A DNA stretch of 64,000 bases from Syntrophorhabdaceae bacterium (lineage in GTDB: Bacteria > Desulfobacterota > Syntrophorhabdia > Syntrophorhabdales > Syntrophorhabdaceae): positions 224,001 to 288,000 of the forward strand of contig CAXXUO010000001.1 in the NCBI GenBank assembly GCA_963666485.2. Reading direction: 5' to 3'. Of this stretch, positions 45,872 through 49,535 are shown piece by piece (the stretch's first letter is position 1; every line of letters begins with the position of its first letter). A program made the translations under genes and the position numbers. Under the pieces are notes generated by a model, which saw only the letters and a program-made list of their open reading frames with translations, was not told the DNA's origin and ran no database searches.

Positions 45872-46489
45872 TTAGGAAATTTTTTTGTAGATGATCAGAC
45901 GATAGGTCTTGCCGGTCCCCGGCAGGGAATAATCCCGTGATGTTTCGACCAGGTAGCCGTCCCGTGAGAATTCTTCCTGCGAGCTCCCTTTCACAATACA
46001 GACAAGACCTCCTGCCAGGACATGCCGATCGGCCGCTTCGAGGACCGCCTCGCCCGTCCCGTACGCTTTCGCGACGAGCCGGTCAGCCTGAAGGGGATCG
46101 ATGGCCTCAACCCTTCCCCGGACGGGTATGAAATTGACAAGGCCGATCGCACGCCTGACGTGCCTTTGAAACTGGATCTTCTTGAGGTTGCTGTCGATCG
46201 AGCATACCTCGAGCGAACGGTCAAGGATGGCGAACGGGATGCCGGCGATCCCCGATCCCGATCCCAGGTCTATCACGCGCCTGCCATCGGCAACATATGC
46301 ATAGAGGAAAAAGGAATCGGCGAGAAGCTCCGAGCACACCCTGTCCATGTCCCGGATCCCGACCAGGTTGACCGCCCGGTTCCATCTTTCGAGCTCTTCT
46401 ATAAACGTCACGAGGTCGGCCAATTGTTCCCCGGAAACGGGGATCTGAAAATGATCTAAAGTCTTTTGTATCAGTCCGTTACGGTCCAT
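45872..46489 (-). CDS. rsmG: 16S rRNA m7G527 methyltransferase (GidB)
   Basis: WN..VNL, DLGSGSG..GIP, KK..F; upstream of parA. Confidence 0.9.
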   Translation of the reverse strand: MDRNGLIQKTLDHFQIPVSGEQLADLVTFIEELERWNRAVNLVGIRDMDRVCSELLADSFFLYAYVADGRRVIDLGSGSGIAGIPFAILDRSLEVCSIDSNLKKIQFQRHVRRAIGLVNFIPVRGRVEAIDPLQADRLVAKAYGTGEAVLEAADRHVLAGGLVCIVKGSSQEEFSRDGYLVETSRDYSLPGTGKTYRLIIYKKIS

Positions 46490-46535
46490 GTGCTAAAGAA
46501 TAGCATAATTTCTTTTGTTCTGTTATACTACGGCC

Positions 46536-48218
46536 ATGCGAAAATTTATCCTTTTTTTACTGGTAGTATTTCTGTTGGTATCTTGCTCTTCCAAGCCCGC
46601 CGTGAAAAAAAATGAAAACCCCGTAGACCTGTATGTTTCCGGCGTCGATCTCATGAAAAAGAAAAAGTACGACGACGCCGTGAAGAAGTTCAATGCCATC
46701 CGCGAGCAGTACCCTTTTGATCCCATGGCCCTGGTAGCGGCCGTGAAGCTCGGTGACACCTATTTCCTGAAAAAGGACTATGTCCTTGCAACCAGTACGT
46801 ACGAGGATTACTTCAAGGCGCACCCCGACGAGGAAAATATCCCCTATGTGCTTTTCAAGCTTGGAGAGTGCTACGAAAAGCTCTCGCCATCGGCTGACAG
46901 GGACCAGGCCAATACTATTAAAGGCATAGAGAGGATCACGTATCTGAGGAACAGGTACCCGGCGACCCAGTACGCGGCCGAATCCGAAGGCAGGCTGAAG
47001 ATGTTTATCCAGAAACTGGCGGACCGCGAGCTCTATGTCGGGGAATTTTACGTGAGGACCGCCCAGTACAACGCGGCCATCATGCGGCTCGAGTCAATGC
47101 TCAAGCAGTTTCCCGATTCGAAGAACACCGACAAGGCGCTCTTTTTGCTCTATGATGCCCACCGGCAGCTTGGCAACCAGGAAAAAGCGGACGAATACCT
47201 CCAGGCATTGCGCACAAAGTACCCGAAGAGCGTCTATGCCCGTGCCACTATCCGGGAGCGCAAGACATTAAAGATAACGCAGGTTGATCCCGCGCAACCC
47301 GGGCAGGCGACCGCTTCGGTAAAGAAACAGGCGCCTCCGGCGACCGCGCAGAAACCCGCCCAAACGCCTCCGGCTGCACCGGAGCCCGTCCCGTCAGTTC
47401 CAACTCAGGCCGGGTTCAAGCCGCCCGCGGAGATCCAGCAGACCTCGGAGATCCCGCTCCTTGTCGACCCGATGGCGACGAGCTCCGCGGGAGGGCCATC
47501 CGACCAGGTAACCACGACGCCGCAAGCTCCGACGTATGCCGAAAGGCCGAAGAAAGTGATCGACCTGAGGCCGCCAGAGCAACCGGCAGCACCGGCACAG
47601 CCGGCCCCGGCACCTGAAACACCAAAGGCGTCTGCACCGGTCGCGTCTGCACCGAAAGCACAGGCGCCTGAAGCTCCAAAGGCACCGCAGACACAGGCCT
47701 CTCTTAAACCCGCCGAAGCCCCGAAACCCGCCGAACCGGCAAAACCGCAGACGGAAAAACCCGAGACCGGAAAAACATCAGATAAAAAGCTCGGGTTCCT
47801 CGACCAGAAAAAACCCATCGATATCGTATCGGATACAATGGAGGGTTTCGACAAGGAAAAATATGTCCTGTTCAAGGGTAATGTCGTCGCAAAGCAGGAC
47901 GACCTTTATATTTACTCCGACACCATGGAAGCTTACATGAGCGCCGACACGAACGAGATCGACAGGGCAAATGCCAAGGGCCACGTGCGGATCATCAAGC
48001 AGAACAGGACAGCAACATCCCGGGAAGCATACTTCGATAACGTCAAAGGGGAGATCCTCCTGAAAGGCGATGCCGTCGTAACGTCCGACAAGGACAGGGT
48101 CGAGGGCGACGTCGTTACATATTATGTCAATGAAGACCTCGCCGTCGTGACCGTTGATAAGGTAAAAGACAAGGATAAGAAGGCGAAGGTAACGATCTAT
48201 CCGAAGCAGAAACAGTAA
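46536..48218 (+). CDS. bamD: BamD lipoprotein fused via Pro/Ala-rich linker to an LptA/OstA-like domain
   Basis: Lipobox LVSC; TPR-like BamD motifs (YPF, DRDQ, RELYVGEFY, AAIMR); ~170 aa PAQ/PKA linker; C-terminal PIDIVSD...FKGNVVAKQDD...AKGHV...LKGDA..EGD. Confidence 0.85.
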   Translation: MRKFILFLLVVFLLVSCSSKPAVKKNENPVDLYVSGVDLMKKKKYDDAVKKFNAIREQYPFDPMALVAAVKLGDTYFLKKDYVLATSTYEDYFKAHPDEENIPYVLFKLGECYEKLSPSADRDQANTIKGIERITYLRNRYPATQYAAESEGRLKMFIQKLADRELYVGEFYVRTAQYNAAIMRLESMLKQFPDSKNTDKALFLLYDAHRQLGNQEKADEYLQALRTKYPKSVYARATIRERKTLKITQVDPAQPGQATASVKKQAPPATAQKPAQTPPAAPEPVPSVPTQAGFKPPAEIQQTSEIPLLVDPMATSSAGGPSDQVTTTPQAPTYAERPKKVIDLRPPEQPAAPAQPAPAPETPKASAPVASAPKAQAPEAPKAPQTQASLKPAEAPKPAEPAKPQTEKPETGKTSDKKLGFLDQKKPIDIVSDTMEGFDKEKYVLFKGNVVAKQDDLYIYSDTMEAYMSADTNEIDRANAKGHVRIIKQNRTATSREAYFDNVKGEILLKGDAVVTSDKDRVEGDVVTYYVNEDLAVVTVDKVKDKDKKAKVTIYPKQKQ

Positions 48219-48224
48219 AAAGAC

Positions 48225-48793
48225 CGGCTAACGGCGTACGGCTAACGGCTAACGGAAAAAACAAAGTCATCGTCATTCCGCCGTATTTGCGGCGGAATCC
48301 AGAGTTTTTTAAGGCAACTCATCCCATTATCAATTTCTGACATGAAAAAGCAAAGACGCTGGATTCCCGCTTTCGCGGGAATGACGGCAGGATGCACTGG
48401 TCAGGATAAGCGTTGACAACTACAGACTCATAAATGAAGAGTCACGGTCTTCCGGTTAAGATTGTTTCAGTGTAAGACACTCCAATCGCAGAGGGATATC
48501 AGCTGCCACTCATTCATTGTCAAACCTTCCGGAAAAATTTGGGGGACGTCCTTAAGAAAGTAAGAAACTCCTCAAACAACTAAACGGACCGCCCTGTCGT
48601 TATTATCCCCGGACCGGGTAATTCTAAGTTACTTACTTTCTTAAGGACGTCCCCTTTGCCTTTAAAGACACTGGATTCCCGCTTTCGCGGGAATGACGGC
48701 AGGGTGGAGAAGCCTTACGCCTTACGCCTTACGCCTTACGCCTTACGCCTTACGCCTTACGCCGTTAGCCGTTAGCCGTTAGCCGTTAGCCGT
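48225..48793. repeat. Composite element: CGGCTAA arm - three CGTC-REPs and an internal IR element - (GCCTTAC)7(GCCGTTA)4 arm
   Basis: Arms 48225-48252 and 48712-48788; REPs at 48271, 48352-48391, 48664-48703. Confidence 0.9.
48542..48654. mobile_element. Putative MITE with perfect 23-bp terminal inverted repeats
   Basis: GGGGACGTCCTTAAGAAAGTAAG (48542-48564) and its exact reverse complement (48632-48654); no coding capacity. Confidence 0.55.
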
Positions 48794-49208
48794 CTATAAA
48801 CGGTATCGCATCATTTTTCCGATATACCAATGCCTGGCACACCGCTATCAGGTCATCCCCATCTTTCACGGTTATGTAGTATGACGCCGTCCGGTTCGTT
48901 CTGTGCGTCTCGTTGGATTCAGCCACGAGAAGCGAACCTTTTTTCGGCGGCTTCATATAGGTTATGTTCATATTCAGCGCGACTGAGATGCGGTCGTGGC
49001 TGTTCGAGGATATCTCGAAGGCCTCGTCGATAAGACCGAAGATCGCGCCGCCGTGGGCATTGCCGTATATGTTGTCCATATCATCAGTGTAGACCATCTC
49101 GCACAGGGCATACCCTTCACGAATGTCTTTAAGCCGTATGTTGAGAAGACGGGCGAACGGTTCCTTGTCTACCTGACGGAAATAGGCATTCCTTTTTCCA
49201 TCATCCAT
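48786..49208 (-). CDS. PaaI-family hotdog-fold thioesterase
   Basis: N.YG.AHGGAIF.L.D, NITYMKP. Confidence 0.9.
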   Translation of the reverse strand: MDDGKRNAYFRQVDKEPFARLLNIRLKDIREGYALCEMVYTDDMDNIYGNAHGGAIFGLIDEAFEISSNSHDRISVALNMNITYMKPPKKGSLLVAESNETHRTNRTASYYITVKDGDDLIAVCQALVYRKNDAIPFIDG

Positions 49209-49211
49209 GGC

Positions 49212-49535
49212 CTATAGGACCTTTTTGAGTGCTTCGTCGACATTCCCTTTCGGTGACGCACCGATGATACGCTGCATCTCCTCACCGCCTTTAAATACGA
49301 TCAATGTCGGGATGCCCCGAATGCCGTACTGGGCGGGGGTCTGTGGATTCTCGTCCACATTGAGCTTCATTATCTTGACCCTGCCTTCGTATTCCCCGGC
49401 AAGGGCGTCGATCACGGGCCCCATCGTCTGGCACGGCCCGCACCAGGTCGCCCAGAAATCAACCAGCACGGGAACCGCGGAATCAAGTACCTCCGTTTTA
49501 AACTCGGCATCTGTCACTGCCCTGGCGTTGCTCAT
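49212..49535 (-). CDS. trxA: Thioredoxin
   Basis: VDFWATWCGPC, LNVDENP, IRGIPTL. Confidence 0.96.
   Translation of the reverse strand: MSNARAVTDAEFKTEVLDSAVPVLVDFWATWCGPCQTMGPVIDALAGEYEGRVKIMKLNVDENPQTPAQYGIRGIPTLIVFKGGEEMQRIIGASPKGNVDEALKKVL

Follow-up and report, generated by a model that had tools for sequence, protein, structure and literature searches.

A fusion of BamD to an LptA-type domain in Syntrophorhabdaceae and other families of the Desulfobacterota

Background

How Gram-negative cells coordinate the insertion of protein by the machinery for beta-barrel assembly (BAM) and of lipopolysaccharide (LPS) by the lipopolysaccharide transport (Lpt) pathway into the growing outer membrane is an open question, and both machineries are antibiotic targets. 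In Escherichia coli, LptD is among the substrates of BAM and engages BamD while it is being assembled. Known BamD proteins stop after their tetratricopeptide repeat (TPR) domain or carry short tails, whereas LptA is a free protein with its own signal peptide, normally encoded in an lptC-lptA-lptB cluster. Two further OstA-fold units of the pathway are held at one membrane by a covalent link, that of LptC through a transmembrane helix and the N-terminal domain of LptD, at the outer membrane, through the LPS-translocon beta-barrel that follows it. Here we describe a gene on a 64,000-nucleotide stretch of DNA (the window) from a Syntrophorhabdaceae bacterium of the order Syntrophorhabdales (GenBank assembly GCA_963666485.2, contig CAXXUO010000001.1, positions 224,001 to 288,000), the product of which joins BamD to an LptA-type domain in a single polypeptide.

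In the accessible text of a survey of BAM lipoproteins, delta-proteobacteria were reported with only BamA and BamD, the only BamD extension mentioned was one of 60 residues in alpha-proteobacteria, and no LptA-type domain was mentioned (Anwari et al. 2012, PMC3359395). The first-pass annotation of the window, made from the sequence alone, had suggested that the BamD-LptA architecture was not described. Full-text literature searching, supplements aside, found no paper describing such a fusion, but hundreds of these proteins are present in public databases with automatically assigned names, for instance 'BamD' or 'LptA', so that the claim stands for the literature and not for the databases. Papers matched by a search for a BamD fusion dealt, to judge by their titles, with BamA-BamD work or with unrelated subjects, and the 'BamD' named in some papers on anaerobes is probably the subunit of benzoyl-CoA reductase. 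The gene is a case of two well-known families in an undescribed, conserved combination.

Architecture of the BamD-LptA gene

The gene was found to be an uninterrupted frame of 560 codons from an ATG at 46536 to a stop at 48216-48218 (Table 1), encoding a putative bifunctional outer-membrane lipoprotein in which BamD and an LptA-type jellyroll are joined by a flexible tether. The predicted product has a mass of 62.3 kDa, or 60.3 kDa when counted from Cys17, the lipobox cysteine, which is conserved in at least 90% of 131 aligned relatives. An in-frame TTG lies upstream at 46515, with homologues beginning at the MRK of 46536. The first-pass annotation had read a lipobox and BamD-like region of ~240 aa, a low-complexity linker of ~170 aa and an LptA/OstA domain of ~140 aa in one open reading frame (ORF) with a product of ~62 kDa; on recomputation its coordinates and sizes were all correct, and profile matches and a structural model returned exactly this architecture.

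Table 1. Features of the BamD-LptA gene, in coordinates of the window
Feature	Position	Strand	Residues and basis
Whole gene, BamD-linker-LptA lipoprotein	46536..48218	+	Single ORF, 560 aa plus stop
Lipoprotein signal peptide and lipobox	46536..46586	+	Residues 1-17, MRKFILFLLVVFLLVSC, the last being Cys17 (codon 46584-46586)
BamD (YfiO) TPR-like helical domain	46617..47276	+	Residues 28-247; TIGR03302, PF13525, AlphaFold2, Foldseek
Disordered Pro/Ala/Gln/Thr/Lys-rich linker	47277..47795	+	Residues 248-420; composition, low pLDDT
Short conserved linker motif YAERPKKVIDLRP	47535..47573	+	Residues 334-346; alignment of 38 relatives
LptA-type OstA beta-jellyroll domain	47796..48215	+	Residues 421-560; PF03968, TIGR03002, fold matches

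The N-terminal half has the lipobox signal of a BamD and matched the NCBIfam model TIGR03302 over its full length (residues 1-234, covering model positions 1-238 of 239; 206.5 bits, the cut-off being 81.4) as well as the Pfam YfiO family PF13525 (residues 28-220, 129.6 bits, cut-off 25). An AlphaFold2 model of the whole protein, built from an alignment of 131 relatives (mean predicted local distance difference test score, pLDDT, 78.6), places helices at residues 29-247 with a pLDDT of ~97. Comparison with the PDB using Foldseek superposed this half on solved BamD structures with a target TM-score (TMt) of 0.85-0.92, namely that of E. coli (5d0o chain D; TMt 0.92, root mean square deviation (rmsd) 1.5) and that of Rhodothermus marinus (3qky; E 7.4e-15). 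Among six BamD matches in this 99%-complete genome the fusion locus was the only one above the cut-off, the runner-up scoring 42.3 bits. As the organism's only BamD, the N-terminal half must presumably serve in the BAM complex. The difference from the known proteins lies in the ~310 residues that follow, a disordered leash and the LptA-type domain.

The C-terminal domain was matched by the Pfam LptD_N/OstA family PF03968 (residues 430-533, 65.1 bits, cut-off 20.4) and, end to end, by the LptA equivalog model TIGR03002 (residues 423-557, model positions 5-142 of 142, 68.0 bits, cut-off 71.7). It was modelled as an all-beta fold with strands at residues 429-553 (pLDDT 93-97), and its fold was found to be that of LptA, with Foldseek matches to E. 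coli LptA (2r1a_C; TMt 0.82, E 9.1e-9, rmsd 2.6 over 140 columns) and to the LptH of Pseudomonas aeruginosa (4uu4; TMt 0.81), N-terminal domains of LptD matching more weakly. A sequence search of the PDB with the C-terminal 157 residues gave seven matches, all of them LptA; the best was E. coli LptA 2r19 (E 0.004), with an alignment covering almost the entire domain. The most conserved part of the domain consists of the first jellyroll strands, the edge at which LptA receives the unit upstream of it; K426, P427, D429, I430, S432, D433, M435 and E436 are each conserved in at least 90% of the 131 sequences. In contrast to LptA, the tethered domain forms the C-terminal portion of a lipoprotein and lacks a signal peptide of its own, and unlike LptD the protein ends at the jellyroll, with no barrel. 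As a tethered jellyroll the domain follows the same idea as the LptD N-terminal domain, but the tether is here a long disordered leash to a BAM subunit rather than a transmembrane helix or a translocon barrel.

The linker of 173 aa is composed of 22% proline and 19% alanine with few hydrophobic residues, these two amino acids making up 41% of it compared to 12% of the remaining protein. It was modelled without secondary structure (pLDDT 37-64), and the G+C content of its DNA climbs to 0.63-0.68. In a related strain it is the fastest-diverging stretch of the gene, yet its length there is equal. Within the motif YAERPKKVIDLRP, residues I342, L344 and P346 are conserved in at least 90% of 38 aligned relatives of the Syntrophorhabdus group, among which only the form with the shortest linker lacks the motif; it was not clearly present in the distant fused families examined. 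A slight rise of pLDDT, to 58-63, was seen around the motif at residues 330-360. The motif was considered as a structured docking strand, a candidate that was rejected on that low pLDDT, the lack of a strand in the model and the lack of a clear counterpart in distant families.

Evidence for a genuine single gene

Comparison using BLAST with the best 120 of 279 homologues showed that all 120 possess both domains (both Pfam families). Identity to the query ranges over 55-92% in the BamD half and 57-94% in the LptA half; both halves are under selection, and their constraint is similar. Both domains lie in one frame at 53 of 54 loci of Syntrophorhabdus-type species (L026-L079, one genome per species), the remaining locus being interrupted by a contig end. 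Among these loci is that of the cultured isolate Syntrophorhabdus aromaticivorans UI (L038), at 47% identity. A single contig covering 46400-48254 without differences was found in public runs X1 and X2, which derive from the same sample, and a diverged strain from a different study retains the reading frame, with indels within the ORF only of 3 bases.

These results bear on the possibility that two separate genes were merged through an error of assembly or sequencing within the G+C-rich linker. In favour of such an error, a related genome of family f26 (G165) does have the halves in two overlapping frames. The 120 single proteins come from many assemblies, however, and together with the species loci, the isolate genome and the frame kept in the strain of another study they refute the assembly-artefact reading, the chance of which is negligible. 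Thus, of the two findings that would have spoken against the first-pass annotation, a stop in the linker dividing two genes was seen neither in relatives nor in contigs, and a C-terminal fold other than OstA/LptA was seen neither in the PDB matches nor in the model.

The Lpt pathway of the genome

Only three PF03968 loci were identified in the genome, these being the BamD fusion, LptD (708 aa, contig 9) and an ORF of 306 aa in which lptC and lptA are joined (G000:C1:1059501-1060418; L004 5502-6419), situated outside the window. No free LptA was found in this 99%-complete genome using PF03968. The 306-aa ORF lies between kdsA-kdsD and lptB-rpoN-hpf-hprK, at the usual place of lptA and on the same contig as the fusion gene, ~790 kb from it. 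The check for a separate lptA in an lptCAB cluster, proposed with the first-pass annotation, therefore found an LptC-LptA fusion in its place. This ORF was matched by LptC at residues 13-177 (60.3 bits) and by an LptA-like domain at residues 189-296 (40.4 bits); its model shows a transmembrane helix and two continuous jellyrolls (pLDDT 86.5, predicted TM-score 0.75), with fold matches to LptC 3my2 (TMt 0.81) and LptA 2r1a_C (TMt 0.78). LptE is also present, and the LPS pathway of the genome is full (kdsA, kdsD, lptB, lptD, lptE).

Among 31 genomes of the order, the LptC-LptA ORF was matched in one stretch over both domains in 26, and one 74%-complete genome had no match. The order thus lacks a free LptA, its LptA-like units being fused one to LptC and one to BamD. 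Elsewhere in the phylum, all five unfused genomes examined possess a free LptA (frames of 170-288 aa), four of them also with an LptD match, and in the three fused genomes examined outside the order (families f13, f26 and f15) free LptA, fusion and LptD are all present.

In a tree of 44 OstA domains (142 columns), the backbone of which is poorly supported, the tethered domains cluster with the free LptAs found in related genomes, apart from the LptC-linked jellyroll, whose long-branch clade has 100/100 support. A hidden Markov model (HMM) of the tethered domain scored free LptAs of relatives at 101-118 bits and the genome's own LptC-linked domain at 46. Because of this grouping and these scores, the tethered domain is regarded as a canonical-looking LptA paralogue.

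Within the representative protein library, a protein of 350 aa (P0263) was observed with a signal-like N-terminus and two tandem LptA-like domains, scoring 64 and 80 bits with the tethered-domain HMM. This tandem form is another covalent way to fix bridge units.

Distribution of the fusion

A BamD match was identified in every genome of a 301-genome sample of the phylum; as 150 of the 683 matches were listed, counts of fusions given here are lower bounds. All ten relatives from the same order in this sample possess both halves in one frame. Testing of 27 cases of long frames among the listed matches (26 fetched regions and locus L025) gave at least 21 further genomes with a one-frame fusion, in families f13 (8), f26 (6), f15 (4), f17, f49 and f27 (1 each), as well as the one f26 genome with a split frame and five plain BamDs with other tails. 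The pairing is thus found in at least six other families of the phylum and at least nine families overall. Lipoboxes were present in 16 of 20 distant fused forms examined.

Most of the phylum has a plain BamD. At 24 of 24 loci of Syntrophaceae, Syntrophales and Desulfobacterales (L080-L103), BamD stood alone, with no LptA-like frame within 4 kb. Among the best 150 clusters from 1.84 billion representative proteins, 30 have both domains, 110 BamD only and 10 an LptA-type domain only, the last being fragments or other architectures without a BamD match. The ESM Atlas holds three clusters with both families (55, 108 and 92 members), in which the commonest phylum is Thermodesulfobacteriota. From this distribution across families and databases, the BamD-LptA architecture is lineage-restricted, yet old and stable.

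Variants of the architecture were also observed. Genomes of family f26 (L104, L112-L117) carry a three-domain form of 674-953 aa, in which BamD, linker and LptA domain are followed by a Cds6_C NTF2-like domain (PF24125, 66-76 bits); in two of them (L112 and L113) the gene lies directly upstream of tolQ-tolR on the same strand, and it is this form that is split across two overlapping frames in G165 (L117). Short fused forms of 404-418 aa were found in families f15 and f49 (L119-L123; 417, 409, 418, 404 and 409 aa from the chosen start). Their OstA domain is strongly diverged, with PF03968 scores of 37.5 and 27.4 bits in the two scanned, and lies on a long branch, a well-kept free LptA being present in the same genome.

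Proposed function and alternatives

The function proposed for the protein is that BamD works in the BAM complex and that the LptA unit tethered to it docks onto the LPS bridge at its LptD end, a reading to which we give a probability of roughly 0.45. BamD, as part of BAM, would lie on the inner face of the outer membrane, where the lipid anchor and BamD itself would hold the LptA unit beneath that membrane, the leash keeping it, as estimated from linker lengths, within some nanometres to tens of nanometres of BAM. In the head-to-tail manner of LptA, the unit would dock onto LptD's N-terminal jellyroll, thereby forming the outer-membrane-proximal link of the bridge, and would take LPS at its strongly conserved N-terminal edge and hand it to the LptD jellyroll. 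The inner-membrane half of the bridge in this genome would be the LptC-LptA fusion, and every jellyroll of the resulting bridge, LptC-LptA / LptA(BamD) / LptD, would therefore be membrane-tethered. LPS would in this way be exported at sites with a physical link to BAM, where outer-membrane proteins are inserted. Complex prediction with residues 415-560, the periplasmic part of LptC-LptA and the LptD N-terminal domain, each with its own alignment, gave a score of 0.52, compared to 0.46 for a control with chain 1 replaced, values that count neither for nor against this docking.

A number of results weigh against this arrangement. Linker length among the best 120 homologues ranges from 22 to 205 aa, with composition varying too, and is unconstrained, which makes the linker a leash rather than a ruler. 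The tethered unit is extra in families f13, f26 and f15, since the fusion coexists there with a free LptA; it is not the only LptA of the bridge and is not needed to complete it. No lpt, bam or other envelope genes are adjacent to the fusion, which is flanked by rsmG and paaI-trxA. The domain also scores 3.7 bits below the curated LptA equivalog cut-off, and a single clade of all tethered domains was neither rejected nor shown by an approximately unbiased test (p-AU 0.26). The free linker length and the coexisting free LptA weigh against a strict structural role and leave room for two other readings.

One of these, which we consider unlikely, is that BamD merely serves as a convenient lipoprotein carrier concentrating LptA near LptD, with no coordination of protein and LPS insertion. 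A disordered linker of free length and the lack of synteny with lpt or bam genes speak for such a carrier, as does the presence in the pathway of other membrane-tethered jellyrolls, namely those of LptC, the LptD N-terminal domain and the LptC-LptA fusion described here. An arbitrary passenger, however, would hardly account for the LptA-type domain being paired with BamD in all 30 of the two-domain clusters (two HMMs, best 150 representative clusters), nor for the pairing being kept in at least nine families, and the sole copy of BamD, presumably essential, would be a costly place for it. The other reading, somewhat less probable still and one of two options raised in the first-pass annotation (the second being nucleation of the Lpt bridge at BAM), makes the tethered jellyroll a helper of LptD assembly that caps or chaperones the nascent LptD N-terminal jellyroll while BAM folds the barrel, and that stands outside the working bridge. 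The engagement of BamD by LptD as a BAM substrate in E. coli is in keeping with such a helper, linkers down to 22 aa would keep it beside BAM, and in the three families with a free LptA the tethered copy would be available for another task. This order is without free LptA, however, and the tethered domain is the more canonical of the two LptAs present, which fits poorly with a function as chaperone alone; a cap sitting on the acceptor edge of LptD would also have to depart before every bridge forms.

Cleavage in the linker, perhaps at YAERPKKVIDLRP, would release a soluble LptA from the protein, making the fusion a means of co-expression and an export route. Although a short conserved motif in an otherwise free linker and an order without a free lptA gene would suit such a precursor, the motif is missing from the shortest-linker homologue and not clearly present in distant families, we know of no protease site that matches it, and families with a free LptA keep the fusion too; cleavage is accordingly judged improbable. 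Lower again, and very improbable, is a role of the jellyroll in moving some cargo besides LPS, such as phospholipid or the acyl chains of lipoproteins, to BAM or away from it. The fold offers a hydrophobic groove of a generic kind, and the f26 fusion has a third, NTF2-like domain and is located before tolQ-tolR. In addition, the available part of a preprint on LptZ connects the export of surface lipoproteins in Bacteroides with the Lpt pathway, the work, in that part, not being about BamD (10.64898/2026.10.02.756314). Set against this, the domain falls among canonical LptAs and aligns with the LptA model over its full length, in a genome with a full LPS pathway.

Genomic surroundings

The gene is preceded by divergent genes for rsmG, parA, parB and the ATP synthase b subunit, and followed by convergent genes for a PaaI-type thioesterase, a thioredoxin, an MsrP-like protein and an RlmI-type methyltransferase. 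The order rsmG (-), fusion (+), PaaI-type thioesterase (-) and thioredoxin (-) (window 45872-49535) was found to be kept in S. aromaticivorans UI and in a genome of family f2 (L024). An Rfam scan around the gene gave nothing over threshold, and a signal scan nothing above shuffled expectation.

The intergenic region after the stop (48219-48793) is a nested palindromic, repeat-rich element. Heptamer arrays of CGGCTAA (48225-48255) and GCCGTTA (48761-48793) make up inverted arms of 31 nt with 506 nt between them, 7.4 copies of GCCTTAC occupy 48712-48763, and an inner inverted repeat of 28 nt lies at 48542-48569 / 48627-48654. Pieces of 48205-48400, among them a short palindromic unit around TGGATTCCCGCTTTCGCGGGAATGACGG, were matched 84 times over the contigs of the genome; contig depth leaps 500-1000-fold over this stretch, and contigs end at 48254 in public runs. 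The stretch 48205-48400 belongs to a dispersed family resembling repetitive extragenic palindromic (REP) sequences or miniature inverted-repeat transposable elements (MITE).

Implications

The hosts of the fusion are environmental anaerobes of methanogenic digesters and sediments, with one cultured member. For the E. coli bridge, the number of units and the way they are anchored remain under debate, and the LptA units fused to LptC and to BamD offer a natural system in which both are fixed covalently. The fusion is also a ready-made construct for testing the coupling of BAM and Lpt. Taken further, and only tentatively, the LPS bridge of the Syntrophorhabdus order may have no soluble part, LptB2FG with LptC-LptA meeting a last LptA unit hung from BamD. 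BAM would then organise the sites of LPS export, with new outer-membrane proteins and LPS arriving at the same spots, and the natural fusion would provide Rosetta-stone evidence that BAM and Lpt are coupled, as they may also be, without a covalent bond, in other Gram-negative bacteria. The conserved joining in nature of a core subunit of BAM to an Lpt bridge unit is gene-fusion evidence of the kind that usually marks cooperating proteins, and it hints at BAM and Lpt working side by side in these anaerobes.

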